The notes under the pieces were generated by a model. The model was not told the DNA's origin, searched no databases, and saw only the letters and a list, made by a program, of their open reading frames with translations. A stretch of 64,000 bases of DNA from Spirochaetia bacterium (lineage in GTDB: Bacteria; Spirochaetota; Spirochaetia; CADAEX01): positions 2,496,001 to 2,560,000 of the forward strand of contig OY759746.1 in NCBI GenBank assembly GCA_963662795.1, read 5' to 3'. This document shows, piece by piece, positions 2,267-19,087 of this stretch (position 1 is the stretch's first letter; every line of letters begins with the position of its first letter). Position numbers and translations under genes: made by a program.

Positions 2267-3550
2267 ATGAAAAAGAAAAAAAGTATAGCAACAATTATTA
2301 TGCTGGCAATGTTGGCTGGTATCATCGTAGGTATCATTTTAAATGGGTTTGCTGATACGCCTTTTGTAAAGACAGTTCTGACTGGTTTTATTTTTAAATT
2401 GGGGGGCATGGGTTTTACCTATATGATTTCAATGATAGTTGTTCCAATTGTTTTATTTTCTTTGATAGTTGGAACTTCCGATATGGGAGATGTTGTCAGA
2501 CTTGGTAGAATTGGGACAAAAACAATTGGTTGGTATCTGACGACAACTACGGTTGCTATTATTATTGGTTTAACCATATCTTTAATGATTAAACCTGGAC
2601 TAGGATTCGATTTGACCAATTATGCACAAACAATTGAGTCTTACAAAGCGAAAAGTGGATCGCCTGCATTGGTAGACGTTCTTTTAAACATTATTCCCAA
2701 GAACCCATTTAAGGCTTTATCTGAAGGGGTGATGCTTCAAGTTATCTTTTTTGCAATGATGATAGGCACAGCATTAACTATTCTTGGAGAAAAAACATCA
2801 AGTATAAGGAAAGTATTTGTAGAGGGGAATGAAGTGGTTATGCAGATTGTATGGATCGTTATGAAAGCTGCTCCATTTGGCGTATTCTGCCTAACTGCTG
2901 ATACATTTACAAGACTTGGAATTGCTGCGTTTAAACCTTTGGCGATTTATATGATCACTGTTGTCATTGCTCTGTTTATCCACGCTATTGTGGTATATGG
3001 ATCCTTACTCACTGCAGTGGCTAAGCTGAATCCTATTCAGTTTCTTAAGAATTTTGCTCCCGCCATTTCTGTTGCCTTTTCTACTGCAAGCAGTAATGCC
3101 ACCTTACCAGTGGCCCTTGACTCTGTAACCAACAGGTGTGGTGTTCACAAGGATATCAGTTCTTTCACTATTCCGCTTGGTGCTACAATAAATATGGATG
3201 GGTCAGCTATTTCCATGAGCTGCCAGGCCCTTTTTCTCGCTCAAGCCTACGGTATTGAACTTACTGTTCTTCAACTTGCAATGATAGTTGTAACTGCTAC
3301 ACTGGCGTCCATAGGTAATGCAGGGGTTCCTTCAGCGTCTCTAATACTCTTATCTGCGATTCTCATGCAGATTGGGGTTCCTGTTGAAGCTGTTGGTATT
3401 CTCCTAGGTGTTGACAGAATCCTTAGTATGACTAGAACAACAATAAATGTTTCTGGTGATGCAATAGTTTCAATAATTGTTGCAAAATCAGAAGGCTTGT
3501 TTGATATTGATATTTTTAAAAAGAAAAATGTAATTAAAGAGGCAGTATAA
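2267..3550 (+). CDS. Dicarboxylate/amino acid:cation symporter (DAACS/SLC1 family)
   Basis: FSTASSNATLP, GATINMDG, AGVP and DRILSMTRTTINVSGD motifs; multiple TM segments; SD AAGGAG upstream. Confidence 0.93.
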   Translation: MKKKKSIATIIMLAMLAGIIVGIILNGFADTPFVKTVLTGFIFKLGGMGFTYMISMIVVPIVLFSLIVGTSDMGDVVRLGRIGTKTIGWYLTTTTVAIIIGLTISLMIKPGLGFDLTNYAQTIESYKAKSGSPALVDVLLNIIPKNPFKALSEGVMLQVIFFAMMIGTALTILGEKTSSIRKVFVEGNEVVMQIVWIVMKAAPFGVFCLTADTFTRLGIAAFKPLAIYMITVVIALFIHAIVVYGSLLTAVAKLNPIQFLKNFAPAISVAFSTASSNATLPVALDSVTNRCGVHKDISSFTIPLGATINMDGSAISMSCQALFLAQAYGIELTVLQLAMIVVTATLASIGNAGVPSASLILLSAILMQIGVPVEAVGILLGVDRILSMTRTTINVSGDAIVSIIVAKSEGLFDIDIFKKKNVIKEAV

Positions 3551-4881: not shown

Positions 4882-7011
4882 TTAAATCTTGAAAAGAAGG
4901 TCAACATAGGTCGGGAATGGCCAATCCTCTTTCCCTGTCATTTTTTCGAGTGTATCTGCATATAATCTTACCCTGCTCATTAAAGGGAATACCTTTTCAT
5001 GATACGTTTTTGCCTGTGAAAGATGATCTTCAACAGATTTGGCATTTAAGAGTTCTTTTGCAAGCAGATCTGTGCTGTATTTAAGTTCCTCAAAATTCTT
5101 CATCATCTGCTCAAGCATTTCCCTCTGTTCGCTTATCCCGTTTTTAATGCCGGCAGCAGTCATGGAGTTTATAATATCTGCACATTTTCCGGTATATTTA
5201 AGTACGGCAGGGAAAATTTCAAGTCTTACCATATCTATCATTACGCCGGCTTCAATATTTATCTGTTTGCTGTATTTTTCAAGATATATAGTATACCGCG
5301 ACTCAAGTTCTTCCCTGGTCATTATGCTGTATTTTGTAAAAAGTTTTATTGAAGATTCACTGAAAAGCGCCGGTATTGACTCAACGGTTGACTTTATATT
5401 GGGAAGGCCCCTTTTTTCAGCTTCTTTTAACCATTCTTCCGCATATCCGTTGCCGTTGAAAATTATTTTTTTATGGTTTTTGTAAGTCCGTGCGACAATC
5501 TCTTTTATTGTGCCTGTAATATCCTTTGAGTTTTCAAGCTCTGATGCAAATTCAGACAGCACATCAGCAACTACTGCGTTAAGGACTGTATTCGGCATTG
5601 AGATTGAGCCGGAGGAAGGGACCATCCTGAATTCAAACTTGTTGCCTGTAAAAGCAAACGGGGAGGTCCTGTTTCTGTCTGTTGAGTCCTTTGGAAGCTT
5701 TGGAAGCGAGTTTACTCCAAGTTCGAGGTAATTTCCGTTTGTTGATTTTACCGGCTTGTTTTCAGAGAGCTTCTCCAGAATATCGCTGAGTTCAGAACCC
5801 AGGAATATTGAGATAATCGCAGGAGGAGCTTCATTTGCGCCCAGCCTGTGGTCATTTCCTGTATTGCTTGCGGACCACCTCAAAAGCGGAGCATATATGT
5901 CTACGGCCCTGATAATGGCAGAGAGGAATATGAGAAACTGTATATTCTGATGCGGGCTGTCGCCAGGGTCAAGCAGGTTTATCCCGTCATCTGTGCTTAA
6001 TGACCAGTTATTGTGCTTGCCTGATCCGTTAACGCCGGCAAAAGGTTTTTCATGCAGGAGCGCTACAAGATTATGTCTGTTCGCGACTTTCTGGATTACC
6101 TCCATGGTGAGCTGATTATGGTCGGTTGCTACATTTACAGTTGTAAAGATCGGCGCTATCTCAAACTGATTTGGAGCAACTTCGTTGTGCTGTGTTTTTG
6201 CGGAAATGCCAAGTCTCCAGAGTTCATAGTTTAGCTCTCTCATAAAGTCTGCAACGCGGAGCTTGAGCGGACCAAAATAATGGTCCTCCATTTCCTGCCC
6301 TTTTGCCGGCATGGCGCCGAATAGAGTTCTGCCTGTAAGGAAAAGATCCATCCTTTTGTCGAAAAATGATTTATCCACAAGAAAATATTCCTGTTCAGCT
6401 CCGGCTGTCGGGATAACCTTTTCCGATGTTGTGTTTCCAAGAATCCGGACAACACGCATGGCTTCCCTGTTTATGACTTCCATTGATTTAAGGAGCGGGA
6501 CTTTCTTGTCAAGAGCTTCGCCTGTATAGGCAAAAAAAGCTGTTGGAATTTTAAGTGTTACACCTGTGTTGTCATTCATGAGGAATGCGGGTGATGTTGT
6601 ATCCCATGCTGTATAGCCTCTGGCCTCAAATGTCGCCCTGAGTCCTCCGCTTGGAAAAGATGAGGCATCAGGTTCTCCCTTTATGAGTTCCTTGCCTGAA
6701 AATTCAAGTATAACTTTTCCATCCGCTGTGGGTGATATAAAAGAGTCGTGTTTTTCTGCCGTTAAACCAGTCATGGGCTGAAACCAGTGTGTGTAGTGTG
6801 TTGCTCCCTTTTCAATAGCCCAGTCTTTCATTGTGCTTGCAACTACTTCCGCAACTTCGAGAGAGAGCGTCTTGTTCCCTTTCTGTACTTCCTTGAGCTC
6901 CCTGTAAATGCTTTTGGGCAGTCTTGTCCGCATTACTGCATCGTTAAAACAGTTTTCCCCGTATACTTCGCTTAACGGGGTTTTGATGAAATCAATAGTT
7001 TTTTCTTCCAT
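4882..7011 (-). CDS. glnA: Glutamine synthetase type III
   Basis: 709 aa; GATHYTHWFQP, AEKHDSF, EPDASSFPSGGLRATFEARGYTAWD, HNEVAPNQFE and DRNRTSPFAFTGNKFEFR are GSIII signatures. Confidence 0.96.
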   Translation of the reverse strand: MEEKTIDFIKTPLSEVYGENCFNDAVMRTRLPKSIYRELKEVQKGNKTLSLEVAEVVASTMKDWAIEKGATHYTHWFQPMTGLTAEKHDSFISPTADGKVILEFSGKELIKGEPDASSFPSGGLRATFEARGYTAWDTTSPAFLMNDNTGVTLKIPTAFFAYTGEALDKKVPLLKSMEVINREAMRVVRILGNTTSEKVIPTAGAEQEYFLVDKSFFDKRMDLFLTGRTLFGAMPAKGQEMEDHYFGPLKLRVADFMRELNYELWRLGISAKTQHNEVAPNQFEIAPIFTTVNVATDHNQLTMEVIQKVANRHNLVALLHEKPFAGVNGSGKHNNWSLSTDDGINLLDPGDSPHQNIQFLIFLSAIIRAVDIYAPLLRWSASNTGNDHRLGANEAPPAIISIFLGSELSDILEKLSENKPVKSTNGNYLELGVNSLPKLPKDSTDRNRTSPFAFTGNKFEFRMVPSSGSISMPNTVLNAVVADVLSEFASELENSKDITGTIKEIVARTYKNHKKIIFNGNGYAEEWLKEAEKRGLPNIKSTVESIPALFSESSIKLFTKYSIMTREELESRYTIYLEKYSKQINIEAGVMIDMVRLEIFPAVLKYTGKCADIINSMTAAGIKNGISEQREMLEQMMKNFEELKYSTDLLAKELLNAKSVEDHLSQAKTYHEKVFPLMSRVRLYADTLEKMTGKEDWPFPTYVDLLFKI

Positions 7012-7056: not shown

Positions 7057-7072
7057 TGCAAAAAACGTGCCA
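7057..7072 (-). promoter_or_regulatory. Sigma54 (-24/-12) promoter of glnA
   Basis: Minus strand TGGCACGTTTTTTGCA matches TGGCAC-N5-TTGCA exactly, 45 nt upstream of the ATG; SD GGAGGT follows. Confidence 0.88.
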
Positions 7073-7180: not shown

Positions 7181-7223
7181 ATACATTATTGTAGAAAAAT
7201 GGCATGAATATACATGAATGTAT
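7181..7223. promoter_or_regulatory. Two candidate upstream activator sites (TACA-N4-TGTA)
   Basis: TACATTATTGTA (7182-7193) and TACATGAATGTA (7211-7222), about 110-150 bp upstream of the -24 box. Confidence 0.55.
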
Positions 7224-8839
7224 TATTTTTCACGGGTGAGTGTTTTCGGGTTTATACCGAATTTGCTTTTTCTTAAGCCCATTATCCTCTCGCTGATGCC
7301 CAGCATTTTTGCCGCTTTGGTCATATTTCCATGACTTGATTTAAGTGCGTCGAGGATCATTTCCTTCTCAAGTTCATCAACCGCCTGCTGAAGCGTATTG
7401 TGGATTTCAGTTCCGGTAGATTCAGCGCTCTGCAGACTCGGAGGAAGGTGATTGCCGTGGATAACATCATCCGTACTTATAAGGACTGCCCTTTCAATGC
7501 AGTTTTCAAGCTCCCTCACATTCCCGGGCCAGTGGTAGCTTGTAAGGAGCTGTATCGCGGGAGTTGATATCCTTTTTATGTCCTTGTTGTTTTTTTTGCT
7601 GTATTTTTCTGTAAAATAGTCTGCAAGAAGCATTATATCGCTTTTCCTCGATCTTAAAGGAGGTACGTGTACCGGGAAAACATTCAGCCTGTAATAAAGG
7701 TCTTCCCTGAATTTCCCCTCAGTGAGGAGCTGTTCAAGATCCCTGTTTGTCGCCGCAATAATCCTTACACTGGTTTTTATTGTCTCATTTCCTCCGACCC
7801 TTTCAAATTCTTTTTCCTGAAGAATTCTCAGAAGTTTTACCTGTGTTGTAGGGGAGAGGTCTCCGATTTCATCCAGGAATATTGTTCCCCCGTCAGCAAG
7901 CTCAAAGCGTCCCTTTCTTGTAGAAAGGGCTCCTGTAAAAGCACCTTTTTCGTGGCCGAACAGCTCGCTTTCTATAATTGTTTCCGGCAGAGCCGCGCAG
8001 TTTACCTTTATCAGAGGCATATCAGAGCGTTTACTGTTGTAATGGATCGCGTTTGCTATAAGTTCTTTCCCTGTACCGCTTTCTCCCCTTATAAGAACAG
8101 TAGCCTCGCTCCCCGAAACCTGTGCAATAAGGTCAAAGACTTCCTGCATTGCGGTAGAACTTCCTATTATGTTCTTGGGCTTGAATTTATTCTTAAGCGC
8201 GTTCTGGAGTCTTTCGTTTTCATGTTTGAGCTTTTCCTGTTCTTCCTGGTATGTTCTCCTGAGTTCGGCGGCGAGGGCTATCATTGAACCGATTATGGAA
8301 AGAAGTTTTGCGTCCTCTTCAATGCTGAACCCTTCTGAGGTTTGTCTCTGGCAGCTTATCGTTCCTATGGTTTCTGTCCCTATTTTCACGGGAATACAGA
8401 TAAAAGACTGATTTTTCCATTTTTTCCTTGATTCTGTTTTGTCCAGAAAAAGAGGATTGCCCGAGACATTTTCGATTGTAATCGGCTCTCCCGTCTCAAT
8501 AACTTTACCTGTTATTCCTTCTCCTACCTTGTATTTTATTTTTTCCGCAAAAACTTCACTGATTCCGTATGATGCTTCGATTGATATTTCCCTTGAATGC
8601 CTGTTAAGCAGTGTTATGGCTCCCTGAAGCATCTCCATCGACTGGACAGTGTGCTTTATTATGGGAGAAAGGGCCGTCTGCATGTTTTCGCTTTTCTGCA
8701 GGATCTGGCTTATATCAAAAAGCAGGGAAAGTTCCTGAATTTTACGTCTGTAATGTTTCGAAGGAATTGAATCTGGCATGGAATATATGCTACAAATTTG
8801 TAGGTGAAATTTCAAGCTGATTTTAGTGCGGATTAGCAT
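7223..8839 (-). CDS. NifA-like sigma54-dependent activator (GAF-AAA+-HTH); likely true start ATG 8779
   Basis: N-terminal GAF ([14 protein letters not shown]), Walker [41 protein letters not shown]-terminal Fis-type HTH. Confidence 0.92.
8790..8803. promoter_or_regulatory. Perfect palindrome CTACAAATTTGTAG inside the activator's own promoter
   Basis: Same TACA-N4-TGTA core; overlaps the minus-strand TTGAAA(8810-8815)-17 bp-TAGCAT(8787-8792) promoter. Confidence 0.55.
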
Positions 8840-11794: not shown

Positions 11795-12847
11795 ATGCTC
11801 ATACCCGGAGAATGCGTAACTCAGGGTTTAAAGGCGGTTAATGGAAAGGTGAACAGCGGAATTGAAAAGAAAAGACTTTCAATATTAAAAATTCTTCAAG
11901 ATTCGTCAGAGCCTTTGTCAAGCGCTGTAATAACAGAAGAGCTTAACAGGATGGGCAGCTCCATAAGCGAAAGGACTGTAAGGTTTCACCTCCTTGATAT
12001 GGACCGCTGCGGGCTTACAGAGCGGGCGGGAAAACTGGGACGGCTGATTACACCGCTGGGCTCTGATGAACTTTCAATTGCAAGAATACATGAGAAGGTG
12101 GGTTTTCTTACCGCAAGAATTGATGAGATGACCTGGCGGATGGATTACAATATCTGGAACGGCACAGGACGAATTGTCATAAATGTGACTCTTGTAAAAA
12201 ACAGTGATTTACCCCCAGCTGTTCCCCTGCTCGCAAAAAGTTTTGAATCAGGTTTTACCATGGGTGAACTTGTGACAGTAATCAGGCCGGGTGAGACCGC
12301 CGGAACTGTAAAGATACCATGGGACTGTACAGGTATCGGCACTGTAAGCTCAATCAACGTCAACGCGGTCCTTCTTAAAAACAGCATACCTGCTGTTTCT
12401 TTATTCGGCGGCATTCTTGAGATATCAGACATGAAGCCCCAGAGATTCCTTGAGGTGATAAAATATGACGGGACAACTATCGATCCCCTTGAGATATTCA
12501 TTAAAGGGAGAATGACAGATATCCGGGGTATTACTGAAACCGGAAACGGCAGGGCAGGCGCAAGTTTTATAGAAATGCCGGGCGTGAGCAGGAAAGAGTT
12601 TATTGATATCAACAATGCTGTACGTGCGGCCGGACTCGGCGGCGCCCTTGCCGCCGGATGGCCTGGAAAGGAACTGCTTGGGATACCGGTAAACGAAGGA
12701 AGAGCGGGAGGAATTGTCCCCGGGGGGCTTAATGCTGTTGCTTTTCTTGAGGAAAACGGCATTGAAGTAAAATCCCAGGCCCTTTCCTGTCTGATGGATA
12801 TAGGAAATATGTTCAGCTACAGGGAGCTGAAGAACAGGCTTAAATAA
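11795..12847 (+). CDS. nrpR: NrpR-family nitrogen-responsive repressor (wHTH plus one NRD/DUF128 domain); start possibly GTG 11849
   Basis: ILKILQDSSEPLSS...ISERTVRFHL wHTH; TGIGTVSSI, FGGILE, YDGTTIDPLEIFI and GGLNAVAFLEE are typical of NrpR regulatory domains. Confidence 0.85.
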   Translation: MLIPGECVTQGLKAVNGKVNSGIEKKRLSILKILQDSSEPLSSAVITEELNRMGSSISERTVRFHLLDMDRCGLTERAGKLGRLITPLGSDELSIARIHEKVGFLTARIDEMTWRMDYNIWNGTGRIVINVTLVKNSDLPPAVPLLAKSFESGFTMGELVTVIRPGETAGTVKIPWDCTGIGTVSSINVNAVLLKNSIPAVSLFGGILEISDMKPQRFLEVIKYDGTTIDPLEIFIKGRMTDIRGITETGNGRAGASFIEMPGVSRKEFIDINNAVRAAGLGGALAAGWPGKELLGIPVNEGRAGGIVPGGLNAVAFLEENGIEVKSQALSCLMDIGNMFSYRELKNRLK

Positions 12848-12864
12848 ATTTTTACTCACTTTTA

Positions 12865-13059
12865 AGGCAGGTTATTGCCTGTAGTCCGGCAATATTGCCG
12901 TAACAGTAGATGAAGATTCCTTTGCAAATATTAAATAAATAAAAAATATCCAATAACTCTATAATAGAGAATATCCTTTAGCCCTTTCTGTTATACTTAA
13001 TTGACAAAAAATACTGGTGATGTTAGATTCCTGAAAATCAAACGGCAAGTCATTGCCGT
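12865..13059 (+). promoter_or_regulatory. gltBD sigma70 promoter with three GGCA...TGCC palindromes
   Basis: TTGACA(13001-13006)-17 bp-TAGATT(13024-13029) with extended TG; palindromes at 12865-12880, 12887-12900 and 13042-13059. Confidence 0.7.
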
Positions 13060-13071
13060 GAGGAAGGGAAT

Positions 13072-16000
13072 ATGTCTGAAAAAACACTTTATGACCCCTC
13101 TTTTGAGCACGATAACTGCGGAGTCGGCTTTATTGCGGATATAAGCGGAAAAATCTCCCACGATATTATTGAAAAAGGGCTTCTGATTCTGAAAAACCTT
13201 GAACACCGCGGAGCGTCCGGAAGTGATTCAAATTCCGGTGACGGGGCAGGGATCCTTTCCGGGATACCTCATGATTTTTTTAAAGCTGTCGCTGCCAGGT
13301 CAGGAATAACCCTCCCGAAGCAGAACTCATACGGTGTCGGGATGCTGTTTATGCCCCGAAACCCCTCACAGGCAGAAGAAATTGAAAAAGATATTACAGA
13401 AATAATTAAAAGCCGCGGAGGTGAAATTCTTTTATGGCGCAGTGTTCCTGTTGCGCCTGAATGCCTTGGAGAGACTGCTTTACTCTCAAGACCTTATGTC
13501 AGACAGCTTGTCATGAAAATCGGATCGCTCTCGGGAGATGATCTTGAAAAAGAGCTTTATATTATAAGGCGGAGCATAGAGAAAAAGGAAGAATCAAATT
13601 ATTCAATAGAAGATTTTTATATCCCTTCTTTTTCCGCATATACAATTGTCTATAAGGGGCTTTTTATTGCGCCCCAGCTGGAACAGTTCTATCCTGACCT
13701 CACGGACAGCCTTTTCACGAGCTGCTTTGCGGTAGTTCACCAGAGATACAGCACAAATACATTTCCATCATGGCAGCTTGCCCAGCCTTTCAGGTATATT
13801 GCCCATAACGGGGAAATCAATACGATCCGGGGCAATGTAAGCAGGATGAAAGCCCGGGAGCAGACAATTATCGCGGAAAGCAGTGACCCTTACTATGAAA
13901 AAGTAATGCCTGTCATTAATGACGCTTTAAGCGATTCAGGCTGTTTTGATAATGTTTTTGAACTTCTTTTAAGGAGCGGCAGAAGCGCCGCCCACACGGT
14001 AATGATGATGATCCCCGAGCCGTTCAGCAGCGAGTATCATATAAGCCAGGACAGGCGGGCTTTTTACCAGTATCACGCGGCCCTTATGGAGCCGTGGGAT
14101 GGGCCGGCCGCCCTTGTTTTTACAGACGGAAAGATGGCAGCCGCTTCGCTGGACAGGAACGGACTCCGGCCTGCCAGATGGACAATTACAGGAGACAACA
14201 GGTTTATACTTGCCTCTGAAGCCGGCGTTATTCCTCTTGAAGATGAAAATATCAGAAGTACGGGACGGCTTTCCCCGGGAAGGATGGTTATAGTTGATTT
14301 TACCAAAAAGAGGGTTCTTTATGATAATGAAATCAAGGCATCTGTTACCAGGCAGAAGCCTTACCGGAAGTGGCTGGGAGAAAATCAGATTGATCTAAAG
14401 AACATGCTTCAGCTTCCAGGGGAAAATATTATAGAAAAACCGGATGTGAATCTTCTCTCTTCCGTTTTCGGCTATACAGGGGAGGATTTTGCCATAACAC
14501 TTAAAACAATGGCGGAAACGGGGCATGAGCCTGTAATTTCAATGGGGAATGATACTCCCCTTGCAGTCCTTTCAAAAAAGCCCCAGATGCTGTATCCGTT
14601 TTTCAGGCAGTTTTTTGCACAGGTTACAAATCCCCCCATCGATCCGCTCAGGGAAAAGATTGTAATGTCGCTTATGAGTTTTATAGGGAGGGAGAGAAAC
14701 CTGCTTGAGGAGACTCCTCTGCACTGCAGGCAGATCAAGCTGAACCATCCTGTTCTTACAAACGATGATATTGCAAAACTTATCGAAATTGATCTTGAAG
14801 GGCAGCGGACGGAAGTCCTTAAAATGTTTTATTACTGTACGGATAAATGCGCGGAGCAGCTTGATGAGGCGCTTACAAGTCTGTGCCTGAGGACAGAAGA
14901 AAAAATTGACATGGGAGCGACATTTGTTGTCCTTAGCGACAAAAATCTTGAAAACCGGCAGATACCCATTCCCGCGCTGCTTGCTGTTTCGGCAGTGCAT
15001 AATTACCTTGCCTCAAGAAAGAAAAGACAGCTTGCGGGGCTGATAGTGGAAACCGGCGAGGCCAGGGAGGTAATGCACTTTGCCGCGCTTATCAATGCCG
15101 GCGCAAGCGCGGTAAATCCCTATCTTGCATTTGAGCTTATCAGTTATATGAAGGAAAACGGAAAGATTGAGGATGATATCAAGCTGGACACGGCATTTGA
15201 AAACTATATTGAAGCAATAAAGCAGGGTCTGTTAAAGATTATGTCAAAAATGGGGATATCGACCATAAGAAGCTACCGGGGAGCAAAGACTCTTGAGGCG
15301 GTAGGGCTTTCATCTGATTTTATCAGCCGGTTCTTCCCGGGGATTGTTTCAAGGATCGGCGGTATAGGTCTTGACGAGATCGCATCCTCTGCCGCTGAAA
15401 GATACACACAGGCGGTCCGGACCGCAATCAGCAGCAAGGCGGTGGATTTTCCTGAAAGTGCCGGGACGCTTCACTACAGAAGGGGAGGGGAACAGCATCT
15501 GATGTCGCCTGAGGCTGTTGTTTATCTTCAGCGTTCTGTCCGGAGAAGCGATTATGAACTTTATAAAAAATATACAGAGGAAATAGATAATAAGACCAGC
15601 AGAAACACAACGCTGAGATCTCTTTTCAGATTTAAAAAAGGGGATCCTGTCCCGGTTGACGAGGTTGAGAGGGAAGATTCAATTGTAAAGAGATTTGTTT
15701 CCTCTGCCATGTCACTGGGCTCCTTAAGCGTTGAGGCGCATCATACTCTGGCTGCGGCCATGAACGCTCTGGGCTCTTCCAGCAACTCGGGCGAAGGGGG
15801 AGAGGAAGAGTCAAGGGTATCAGGAAAAGAGAGCAGCGATGCTTCAGTACCTGTGTCCGATGCGGGGAAAATAAGACAGATAGCTTCGGCGAGGTTCGGA
15901 GTTACAAGTCATTATATAGCAAACGCCAGAGAACTTCAGATAAAGATTGCACAGGGGGCAAAACCAGGAGAAGGGGGACATCTGCCGGGCTACAAGGTGA

Positions 16001-17619
16001 ATGAACTTATTGCTTCGGTCAGGTATTCAACTCCCGGTGTTACACTTATTTCCCCTCCTCCTCACCACGATATCTATTCAATAGAAGATCTTTCCCAGCT
16101 CATATATGATCTTAAAAACGCCAATCCCGAGGCGCGTATTTCCGTAAAGCTTGTTTCAGAAGCCGGAGTGGGAACAATCGCTTCAGGCGTTGCCAAGGCA
16201 GGTGCTGACATGGTTCTCATCAGCGGACATGACGGCGGAACAGGCGCGGCACCTGTCTCATCTGTTAAGTATGCCGGGCTCCCGTGGGAACTGGGGCTTG
16301 CTGAAACACAGCAGACACTTGTAAAAAACAATCTCAGGAGCAAGATAAGAATTCAGACAGACGGGCAGCTTAGAACAGGAAGGGATATAGCAATTGCTTC
16401 ACTGCTTGGCTCCGAAGAGTTCGGGTTTGGAACTGTCTCACTTGTCTGTCTGGGATGTATTATGATGAGAAAATGCCATAAAAACAGCTGTCCCGTCGGC
16501 ATTGCGACCCAGGATGAAGAACTCAGGAAGAGGTTTGCAGGAAAGCCTGAACATTTAATGAATTTCATGATTTTTACGGCAAGGCATTTAAGAGAGATAA
16601 TGGCATCGCTCGGCTTCAGGAGCCTTGATGAGATGACAGGCAGGTCAGATATGCTTGAAATCGATGATGAGAACCCTGTTATTGCAGAGAGAAAAATCAA
16701 CCTTTCACGTCTGATCTCTTTTGAACCGGTTCCTGATGAAATGAGAAAATCTTCATTATCAGGAAACTTTAAAAGGGAAAAAATTGATTTTCACGACCCT
16801 GTCGAAGATGCACTTATTGAATCTGTCCTTGAAAAAATCTATGCGGGAGAAAAAGCGGTTTTCAGTTCTGATATTTCAAACACAAACAGATCAATCGGAG
16901 CAAGGCTTTCATGGCACGTGTCAGGTAAATTCGGCCCCCGCGGCATGGAAGACGGTATGGTAAAAGCCCGTTTCAGGGGAAACGCAGGGCAGAGTTTCGG
17001 GGCATTCCTTTCCGGGGGGATTACCTTTATCATAAAAGGTTCGCTTAACGATTATCCGGGAAAAGGACTTTCCGGCGGAATTATAGCGGCTTTCCCTCCC
17101 GATACCCTGAAATTCCGCGCGGGGAAAAACGTCATTGCCGGCAACGCAGCCCTTTACGGGGCTACCTCCGGAAGCGCATTCTTCTCCGGTATGGCGGGAG
17201 AGAGGTTCTGTGTGAGAAACAGCGGAGCTTTAGCTGTAGCTGAAGGGACTGGGGACCACGGCTGTGAATACATGACAGGGGGAATAGTTGTTATTCTCGG
17301 GAGAACAGGGATAAATTTCGCTGCGGGAATGAGCGGCGGGACAGCCTATGTGCTTGATGAGGACCAGCTTTTTGATACGAGGTGCAACCTGGAGATGGTT
17401 GATATTGAACCTGTATCCCTTGAACGGGATAAAAAAGAACTGAAAGCAATTATTTCAAAGCATGCTGACTATACAGGCAGCGAATTCGGGAGAAACATAC
17501 TGTTTCACTGGGAGGAAATGTGGCCTCTCTTTGTAAAAGTAATACCATTTGAATACGGCAGCATAATGAGACCGTTATGGGAACGGGAAGAAAAGGAGCT
17601 TTGCAATGGGAAAGAATAA
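13072..17619 (+). CDS. gltB: Glutamate synthase large subunit
   Basis: HDNCGVGF, HQRYSTNTFPSW, AHNGEINT, EPWDGPA, IAQGAKPGEGG, PPPHHDIYSIEDL, CIMMRKCHKNSCP, GXGXG repeats. Confidence 0.97.
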   Translation: MSEKTLYDPSFEHDNCGVGFIADISGKISHDIIEKGLLILKNLEHRGASGSDSNSGDGAGILSGIPHDFFKAVAARSGITLPKQNSYGVGMLFMPRNPSQAEEIEKDITEIIKSRGGEILLWRSVPVAPECLGETALLSRPYVRQLVMKIGSLSGDDLEKELYIIRRSIEKKEESNYSIEDFYIPSFSAYTIVYKGLFIAPQLEQFYPDLTDSLFTSCFAVVHQRYSTNTFPSWQLAQPFRYIAHNGEINTIRGNVSRMKAREQTIIAESSDPYYEKVMPVINDALSDSGCFDNVFELLLRSGRSAAHTVMMMIPEPFSSEYHISQDRRAFYQYHAALMEPWDGPAALVFTDGKMAAASLDRNGLRPARWTITGDNRFILASEAGVIPLEDENIRSTGRLSPGRMVIVDFTKKRVLYDNEIKASVTRQKPYRKWLGENQIDLKNMLQLPGENIIEKPDVNLLSSVFGYTGEDFAITLKTMAETGHEPVISMGNDTPLAVLSKKPQMLYPFFRQFFAQVTNPPIDPLREKIVMSLMSFIGRERNLLEETPLHCRQIKLNHPVLTNDDIAKLIEIDLEGQRTEVLKMFYYCTDKCAEQLDEALTSLCLRTEEKIDMGATFVVLSDKNLENRQIPIPALLAVSAVHNYLASRKKRQLAGLIVETGEAREVMHFAALINAGASAVNPYLAFELISYMKENGKIEDDIKLDTAFENYIEAIKQGLLKIMSKMGISTIRSYRGAKTLEAVGLSSDFISRFFPGIVSRIGGIGLDEIASSAAERYTQAVRTAISSKAVDFPESAGTLHYRRGGEQHLMSPEAVVYLQRSVRRSDYELYKKYTEEIDNKTSRNTTLRSLFRFKKGDPVPVDEVEREDSIVKRFVSSAMSLGSLSVEAHHTLAAAMNALGSSSNSGEGGEEESRVSGKESSDASVPVSDAGKIRQIASARFGVTSHYIANARELQIKIAQGAKPGEGGHLPGYKVNELIASVRYSTPGVTLISPPPHHDIYSIEDLSQLIYDLKNANPEARISVKLVSEAGVGTIASGVAKAGADMVLISGHDGGTGAAPVSSVKYAGLPWELGLAETQQTLVKNNLRSKIRIQTDGQLRTGRDIAIASLLGSEEFGFGTVSLVCLGCIMMRKCHKNSCPVGIATQDEELRKRFAGKPEHLMNFMIFTARHLREIMASLGFRSLDEMTGRSDMLEIDDENPVIAERKINLSRLISFEPVPDEMRKSSLSGNFKREKIDFHDPVEDALIESVLEKIYAGEKAVFSSDISNTNRSIGARLSWHVSGKFGPRGMEDGMVKARFRGNAGQSFGAFLSGGITFIIKGSLNDYPGKGLSGGIIAAFPPDTLKFRAGKNVIAGNAALYGATSGSAFFSGMAGERFCVRNSGALAVAEGTGDHGCEYMTGGIVVILGRTGINFAAGMSGGTAYVLDEDQLFDTRCNLEMVDIEPVSLERDKKELKAIISKHADYTGSEFGRNILFHWEEMWPLFVKVIPFEYGSIMRPLWEREEKELCNGKE

Positions 17620-19087
17620 GGGATTTCTTGAATTCAGTAAAACATATCCGACTTATCAGCCTGTACGGGACAGGGTATCCCATTACAGGGAATTTACAAA
17701 TAATCCTGACCTTAAAAAAATACAGACAGAATGCGGCAGGTGCATGGATTGCGGAATTCCGTACTGTCATGCCCTGGGATGCCCTCTGGGTACACTGATC
17801 CCGGAAATAAATGAAAATATATGGAACGGGGATTATCATGAAGCGTACCTGCGCCTTGAATCAACAGGAAATTTTCCCGAAATTACAGGGAGACTATGCC
17901 CCGCACTTTGTGAAGCATCATGTTCCCTTTCTGTCAATGACTATCCTGTTTCCATAAAATGCATTGAATACAGGCTTGCTGAAACAGCTTTTAAAAACGG
18001 CTGGGTAATTCCTTTGCCCCCTGTCTCTGAAAACGGAATCAAGGTCGCTGTAATAGGCTCCGGGCCGGCAGGACTTGCCGCGGCCCAGCAGTTAAGGAGG
18101 GCCGGCTTCAGCGTGACAGTTTTTGAAAAAGATAAAAAACCGGGCGGACTTCTACGCTACGGCATTCCTTCATTCAAACTCGAAAAGTGGGTTCTTGACA
18201 GGCGTCTTGAGCAGCTTAAGGAGGAGGGTGTTGTCTTCCGTAATGAAGTTGTTATCGGTGATGACATTTCCGCTGAATACCTGCGCCGTTTTTATAATAT
18301 TATTGTACTTGCGACAGGAGCGGGCAAACCGAGAGAAATCAAGGCAATCGGCTCAGGTTTTGAAAATATTGTATATGCGCTTGATTATCTTTCATCATCG
18401 GAGAGATGTCTTTCAGGAGAGTCTGCCGGAGACGGAACAGGCTGGCAAAAGCGTATAAATGCAGAAGGTAAAAGTGTTCTCGTTATAGGCGGCGGAGATA
18501 CAGGTGCCGATTGTGTCGGGACTGCCGTGAGACAGGGGGCAAAAAAGATCTGTCAGTTTGAAATAATGATGCCGCCCGAATCCCATAGCGGTGCAGGCAA
18601 TCCTGCGTGGCCCGATTATCCGGGGATAATGAGAAATTCATCCTCTCATGAAGAGGGCGGACAGCGGTATTGGGCTACGGAGGTCTATCAGTTTACTGGC
18701 AAGGATGTATATGTCGAAAAAGCGCTCTGCCGCAGGGTAAGCTGGAATTATGACCCGGCATCGGGGCGGCACAGCTTCAGTCCTGTAGGAGGCAGTGAAT
18801 TTGAAGCTGATGCAGACCTTGTTATAATAGCAGCCGGATTTATCCACACGGAACACAGCCGCCTTCTTTCCAAACTGGGAGTGACATTTGACAGGGCTGG
18901 TAATATAAAAAAAGATGAAAATAATATGACAGATGCTGAAGGAATATACGCTGCCGGGGACTGCTCTGCCGGAGCTTCGCTTATTGTAAAGGCAATTAAG
19001 AGCGGAAGGGATGCGGCGTCTTCCATCATAGCGAAATACAGAGATCTGCCTGGATACGAAGTTTCCGATAACACTCATTATCTTTGA
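17606..19087 (+). CDS. gltD: Glutamate synthase small subunit
   Basis: RCMDCGIPYCH...CP, TGRLCPALCEASC, VIGSGPAG, IGGGDTGADC; overlaps the end of gltB. Confidence 0.95.
   Translation: MGKNKGFLEFSKTYPTYQPVRDRVSHYREFTNNPDLKKIQTECGRCMDCGIPYCHALGCPLGTLIPEINENIWNGDYHEAYLRLESTGNFPEITGRLCPALCEASCSLSVNDYPVSIKCIEYRLAETAFKNGWVIPLPPVSENGIKVAVIGSGPAGLAAAQQLRRAGFSVTVFEKDKKPGGLLRYGIPSFKLEKWVLDRRLEQLKEEGVVFRNEVVIGDDISAEYLRRFYNIIVLATGAGKPREIKAIGSGFENIVYALDYLSSSERCLSGESAGDGTGWQKRINAEGKSVLVIGGGDTGADCVGTAVRQGAKKICQFEIMMPPESHSGAGNPAWPDYPGIMRNSSSHEEGGQRYWATEVYQFTGKDVYVEKALCRRVSWNYDPASGRHSFSPVGGSEFEADADLVIIAAGFIHTEHSRLLSKLGVTFDRAGNIKKDENNMTDAEGIYAAGDCSAGASLIVKAIKSGRDAASSIIAKYRDLPGYEVSDNTHYL

Follow-up and report, generated by a model that had tools for sequence, protein, structure and literature searches.

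A bacterial NrpR with a candidate GGCAA-N4-TTGCC operator at gltBD in a Spirochaetia bacterium

In the 64,000-nt stretch of Spirochaetia DNA analysed in this study (the window), a gene for a bacterial NrpR lies directly upstream of gltBD, and a palindrome, GGCAA-N4-TTGCC, follows the -10 box of the gltBD promoter and tracks nrpR across genomes. The overall explanation, that bacterial NrpR binds this palindrome, represses gltBD and releases on 2-oxoglutarate, is considered very likely, with its parts standing at different strengths. On the sequence patterns described below, NrpR is very likely the binder of these sites and is highly likely to repress gltBD, while by analogy with methanogens 2-oxoglutarate is the probable inducer. 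Throughout, "long site" denotes GGCAA-N4-TTGCC (equivalently GGCA-N6-TGCC) and "short site" denotes GGCAA-WW-TTGCC. Table 1 lists the features of the window.

Table 1. Positions of genes, predicted promoter and palindromic sites in the window
Feature	Position	Strand	Remarks
type III glnA	4882-7011	-	perfect sigma-54 consensus at 7057-7072 (-)
NifA-like activator, GAF-AAA-HTH	7223-8839	-	directly ahead of glnA promoter
nrpR	11795..12847	+	single-NRD NrpR: winged helix and NRD
imperfect long site, GGCAG-N4-TTGCC	12865..12880	.	PWM rank 19 in genome
short site, GGCAA-TA-TTGCC	12887..12900	.	12-bp core 12888-12899; PWM rank 1 in genome
predicted sigma-70 promoter of gltBD	13001..13029	+	consensus scan
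main long site, ACGGCAA-GTCA-TTGCCGT	13042..13059	.	core GGCAA-N4-TTGCC 13044-13057
gltB, glutamate synthase large subunit	13072..17619	+	NF008730, 1669 bits, cut-off 1047
gltD, glutamate synthase small subunit	17606..19087	+	TIGR01317, 507 bits, cut-off 448

Pfam together with the NCBIfam cut-offs confirmed the first-pass annotation in placing nrpR directly before gltBD, with a spacer of 224 bp between nrpR and gltB. A Pfam scan of the nrpR ORF identified an N-terminal winged helix (HTH_12, E 1e-16) followed by an NRD (NRD1_2/PF01995, E 3e-69), the domain arrangement that defines the NrpR family. Judging from the alignment, the true start is probably GTG 11849, where homologues start, which would give a protein of about 332 aa. 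The closest named relative (96% identity) comes from a Spirochaetales MAG. The NRD of MJ0159 (PDB 3NEK) has the same fold over ORF residues 114-345 (phmmer E 7e-22; Foldseek on the predicted fold, pLDDT 90, gave rmsd 2.2-2.7 A and TM(target) 0.89-0.91), although identity is only 25% and 3NEK reads TICAVT at the motif that is TVSSIN here. TVSSIN is found in the subclade of the window's NrpR; the CS-T-NG pattern (TVCSIT) occurs in 93/120 close homologues, and Ser at the same column is also present in 27 of 93 distant family representatives, for which a FastTree tree was used for viewing motifs only. This motif may line the ligand pocket, and the cysteine of TVCSIT may matter for induction; if the motif does line the pocket, 2-oxoglutarate sensing may differ in proteins with the TVSSIN variant. 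Homodimer prediction for the window's NrpR returned a score of 0.16. No second NrpR paralogue was found in this genome; some related loci have one. The nrpR reading frame is frameshifted in the relatives G005 and G008, perhaps through assembly error, and in the G008 assembly gltB reads frameshifted as well.

The predicted gltBD promoter consists of TTGACA (13001-13006), a 17-nt spacer and a TG-extended TAGATT (13024-13029), with a predicted start at about 13036. The main long site, ACGGCAAGTCATTGCCGT (13042-13059), has perfect 7-bp arms and lies at approximately +7 to +24, after the -10 box and ahead of the GAGG at 13060 that precedes the gltB ATG; its earlier description as occupying a typical repressor position, between -10 box and Shine-Dalgarno sequence, stands, and it is likely to be the repressing operator of gltBD. 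A scan for CGGCAA-N4-TTGCCG, which the first-pass annotation had proposed, returned one occurrence in the 3.93-Mb genome. When the 224-bp spacer was resampled 100,000 times under a first-order Markov model, GGCA-N6-TGCC appeared in approximately 0.15% of the resamples, as did GGCA-N4-TGCC, and no resample contained both. Position weight matrices (PWMs) were built from other loci, using 66 long sites and 68 short sites chosen by at most one mismatch to the consensus and with the window's family left out; these ranked the match at 13041 first in the genome for the long class, the match at 12885 first for the short class, and the imperfect site at 12865 19th. TTGAC is invariant in all eight aligned intergenic regions, and 47 of 48 genomes have it no more than 60 nt upstream of the long site. 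Genomes show three classes of spacing between TTGAC and the long site (21-22, 33-35 and 41-45, the classes being kin groups), metagenome loci have a peak at 29-31, and no phasing is claimed from these values; the long site overlaps or follows the -10 box or start in all position classes. RNA run X1 contains a relative's contig of 294 nt, with 18 differences, that starts at 13051 and leaves the DNA immediately upstream uncovered; because contigs cannot show starts, it was given no weight.

Both other palindromes of the first-pass annotation are also present where it had placed them. The one it had called an N4 variant, CGGCAATATTGCCG (12887-12900), is a perfect 14-mer, but it represents a conserved second class (the short site) rather than a local variant. 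It is likely to be an auxiliary NrpR site upstream of the main site. In G001, G005 and G011 the short site lies 184-185 nt before gltB and 157 bp from the main site, centre to centre, despite diverged DNA between the two. The remaining palindrome, AGGCAGGTTATTGCCT (12865-12880), is one base off GGCAA-N4-TTGCC and starts 22 bp before the short site; it was found only in the window genome and the same-genus G001 (two of the five family genomes with nrpR). Because 7 of 16 adjacent long-long pairs show this 22-bp tandem spacing too, it may nevertheless be a weak but real auxiliary site. The sites earlier described as approximately 177 bp apart correspond to this imperfect site, whose centre is 178 bp from that of the main site, whereas the conserved partner is the short site at 157 bp. 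The accompanying suggestion of looping gained no support from helical phasing: among 57 dereplicated loci, short-long distances gave R=0.25 and p=0.08 at 10.5 bp (n=39), and all site-pair types together gave p=0.77. Looping between short and long sites remains plausible. The wider proposal, that NrpR also binds the short site and that this strengthens repression, possibly through looping, is evenly balanced.

Two features of the surrounding DNA were noted in passing. Between short site and -35 (window ~12948-12962), G000, G001, G005, G008, G011 and G026 share a word resembling TCCAWTAA(C/A)T, possibly the site of a DNA-bending protein. In locus L009 (1600-1700; G008:C26), an insert of approximately 90 bp with duplicated ends directly follows the long site and displaces gltB from it.

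Both site classes emerged from a census in which no motif was assumed. Every palindrome with 5-bp arms and spacers of 0-12 was counted in the non-coding zones of 80 metagenome loci, the best 80 of 464 confirmed matches (one of which, L033, is 98% identical to the window). GGCAA-N2-TTGCC ranked first, occurring in 51 of the 80 loci, which makes the former "N4 variant" the commonest palindrome near nrpR, and GGCAA-N4-TTGCC followed in 33/80. The 3-spacer form was present in three loci, the 5-spacer form in none, and the best unrelated word in 10. The archaeal GGAA-N6-TTCC was found in 5/80 metagenome zones, in 0/31 nrpR-linked gltB regions and nowhere in locus L001. The half-sites of the two lengths are identical, with Y before and R after in both; the short-site centre is A/T in 67 of 72 cases and the long-site centre is free. 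Metagenome long sites stand at predicted promoters of gdhA, gltB, a 546-aa glutamate-synthase-like gene (PF01645) or an nrpR paralogue heading gdhA, and short sites mostly lie 90-160 bp upstream of a long site. By eye, a short site also precedes, by about 10 bp, the -35 of the promoter predicted for nrpR itself in many metagenome loci; that promoter is apparently often leaderless, and a weaker half-site is often found 31 bp further on. In family f86, a long site replaces the short site before nrpR's own -35 (four loci; 3/20 in another set), an argument for both lengths being read by one protein. When the 1,429 ORFs of the 80 loci were clustered and 15 representatives scanned, no recurring DNA-binding regulator besides NrpR came to light. 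The NrpR-site system probably spans phyla, since some of these loci, themselves without taxonomy, encode NrpRs that share 70-92% identity with proteins named Thermodesulfobacteriota, Thermoleophilia and Latescibacterota. No nrpR was found in viral contigs, and among plasmids only haloarchaeal homologues were found.

Across genomes, the presence of the long site before gltB follows that of nrpR. In a class sample of 401 genomes, PF01995 exceeded the cut-off in 72 and gltB was present in 254; in a phylum-wide draw, PF01995 was found in 7 of 401 genomes. From the matches listed, 450 nt upstream of gltB were taken in 123 of the 254 gltB genomes (four regions were shorter than 300 nt), a site was called with at most one mismatch, and nrpR was considered linked if it lay within 5 kb of gltB. 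Among these genomes, which are kin rather than independent, so that Fisher p values overstate and weight is placed on the pattern, the long site was present upstream of gltB in 31/31 with linked nrpR, 17/31 with nrpR elsewhere and 4/61 in which no nrpR was found; the corresponding counts for the short site were 13/31, 2/31 and 0/61. Absence from orthologous loci, which the first-pass annotation had named as refuting its reading, was thus not encountered for the long site in any of the 31 linked gltB regions, and footprinting of nrpR-gltB regions supports the candidate GGCA-N6-TGCC operator that it had tied to NrpR. Profile searches still gave no nrpR in the four nrpR-negative genomes with a long site, of which three are 71-89% complete MAGs of nrpR-rich groups and the fourth is a weak match. 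Within genus g214, the long site was present in all six examined nrpR-positive genomes and absent from all five examined nrpR-negative genomes.

The site also moves with NrpR's neighbour when this is gdhA or the glutamate-synthase-like gene (PF01645). Fourteen of the 31 nrpR-positive genomes with unlinked gltB are without the long site at gltB; six of these show a site at gdhA or a PF01645 gene beside nrpR, as does G033. Among gdhA loci, a site was found in one of eight from nrpR-positive genomes (the nrpR-adjacent one) and in none of 21 from nrpR-negative genomes. In trans, G283 carries two long sites before gdhA on a different contig from nrpR.

Within the window genome, only gltBD has strong intergenic sites. 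No site was found at the promoter of the window's nrpR itself or at either gdhA copy of this genome. No nifH over the cut-off was detected in this genome, and glnA and amtB-glnK (the latter at G000:C1:2746276) are without long or short sites and carry sigma-54 consensus promoters, so the nif, glnA and glnK-amtB set of a global nitrogen regulon does not bear the motif here. The NifA-like protein is likely to be an activator of ammonia assimilation in a genome without nifH. A division of labour is likely on this reasoning, with sigma-54 serving ammonia capture and NrpR the step from 2-oxoglutarate to glutamate. NrpR in these bacteria appears to be a narrow regulator of gltBD, gdhA, the glutamate-synthase-like gene and often its own gene, and it does not appear to be a global nitrogen repressor, unlike that of Methanococcus. 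Elsewhere in the window, what we take to be an IS4-like transposase ORF (520-1677) adjoins a dicarboxylate/amino-acid symporter gene (2267-3550).

In the proposed mechanism, NrpR would sit over the gltBD start and block initiation, rising 2-oxoglutarate would release it by analogy with methanogen NrpR, and glutamate synthase would then consume the inducer. The ligand step is taken from archaeal NrpR, as described in excerpts of PMC9765008, PMC4902934 and PMC11957540. Several other explanations of the same palindromes were weighed. Each palindrome can fold, at about -11 to -15 kcal/mol, and the upstream pair comes after the nrpR stop, features that would suit RNA hairpins acting as an nrpR terminator upstream and as a leader hairpin by the gltB ribosome site. 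This reading, the first part of which the first-pass annotation had itself entertained, is very improbable: there is no U-tract after the short site in any of the 12 tandem loci inspected, the same words occur between divergent genes, and Rfam gave no match. Moreover, pairing is lost in 24 of 35 single changes, and the bases flanking the site vary independently of each other (p=0.19); these counts, made by script on sites picked with at most one mismatch, in which double compensatory changes could not appear, indicate that sequence is fixed and not pairing. In 8 of 47 genomes, the long site even lies ahead of the predicted start, beginning 21-22 nt downstream of TTGAC. It is scarcely credible that the long site works as an element of sigma-54 promoter type or is bound by the NifA-like activator encoded nearby. 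The site does resemble TGGCAC-N5-TTGC, and family f2 and a few of the metagenome loci have a NifA-like gene close to nrpR. However, sigma-54 promoters have a strict GG-GC spacing of 10, and the long site has a spacing of 9 (GG-N9-GC, not GG-N10-GC); the N5 form occurs in 0/80 zones, the site is preceded by a sigma-70 -35 in all but one of the 48 genomes, true sigma-54 consensus promoters are located at glnA and amtB instead, and NifA-like genes are missing from most loci.

The two site lengths could also reflect two proteins, one class being bound by NrpR and the other by an unlinked factor that recognises the same half-site. The classes are indeed sharply distinct, with an A/T-only centre in the short and a free centre in the long, and many genomes have the long site only, but this explanation is quite improbable given that half-sites and Y/R flanks are identical in both classes, that none of the 61 nrpR-negative gltB regions has a short site, and that one and the same position before nrpR's -35 is taken by the short site in some lineages and by the long site in others. 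It is somewhat less improbable, though still unlikely, that NrpR binds the sites and regulates differently, either through another effector or none, or by activating gltBD from the short site. The local TVSSIN variant, the position of the short site upstream of promoters, where activators act, and the inclusion among the targets of gdhA, which many bacteria use under nitrogen excess, would all be compatible with such a departure. Set against this, the main site takes a repressor position in every position class, the Ser of TVSSIN recurs in more distant family members as noted above, and all targets consume 2-oxoglutarate, so that substrate induction fits both gltBD and gdhA. A further reading, which we regard as doubtful, has one NrpR reading the same half-site at two spacings and being shifted between them by 2-oxoglutarate: the ligand-free protein would clamp the long site over the gltBD start, the ligand-bound protein would remain on the short site with its A/T centre, or relocate to it, and serve there as an anchor or in autoregulation, and Thr in place of Ala in the recognition helix would explain GGCA rather than GGAA. 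If true, this would amount to a ligand-driven spacer switch and not to simple release from DNA. Repression of gltBD by NrpR with release on 2-oxoglutarate thus remains the preferred reading.

Methanogen NrpR serves as a model sensor of 2-oxoglutarate, and the closest known counterpart of the present system is NrpR of Methanococcus maripaludis with its nif and glnA operators. That protein has two NRDs, compared to one here; NrpR representatives of 540-580 aa show two NRD stretches, and the recognition helix reads GERAVR in the long two-domain representatives but SERTVR here. The half-site is GGCAA here and GGAA in M. maripaludis; a second class with a spacer 2 bp shorter and a bacterial sigma-70 promoter are further differences. 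The regulon here comprises glutamate-forming enzymes and nrpR, with glnA and amtB-glnK left to sigma-54. The winged helix plus NRD family and the 4-6-4 inverted repeat geometry are common to both systems, as are, according to passages of PMC2723118, PMC5512572 and PMC9765008 and to the title of Lie 2005 in reference lists, an operator just after the transcription start and more than one operator per promoter. The methanococcal operator GGAA-N6-TTCC is placed after the start in passages of PMC2723118, PMC5512572 and bioRxiv 10.1101/2024.03.05.583561; compared to it (same extract of PMC2723118), the long site has the same spacing with one base changed per half-site. Methanosarcina NrpRI and NrpRII belong to the same family and repress nitrogen genes according to an excerpt of bioRxiv 10.1101/2020.06.15.153874, but there NrpR is split over two genes and here it is encoded by one. 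No operator or regulon for bacterial NrpR homologues was found in the literature searched, most subscription journals and regulon databases lying outside that search. The locus supplies precise sites, a GGCA specificity, two spacer classes and a narrow glutamate-synthesis regulon; what is added here is the gltBD case, a large presence/absence test that takes in trans targets, and the separation from sigma-54 genes, and among the close NrpR homologues are proteins named from several other phyla. We regard the advance as incremental, not categorical.

Some observations on related loci are recorded separately. The commonest NrpR target, present at L037:3811-5448 and in many of L033-L112, is a stand-alone glutamate-synthase-like FMN protein of approximately 546 aa (PF01645) with an N-terminal Cys cluster, often encoded near NuoE/NuoF-like and ferredoxin genes; it is possibly an unusual, electron-bifurcating glutamate synthase. 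Two divergent NrpR paralogues share one locus in L038, L048, L064, L065, L085, L091, L092 and L101, the second being approximately 36-46% identical to the query and, in several cases, back to back with the first and heading gdhA. In genus g190 (G499, G605, G641, G653, G659, G675, G680, G690, G695 and G478; L342-L351), nrpR is located apart from gltB, immediately after another conserved gene, and gltB still has a perfect long site right after its -10 box.
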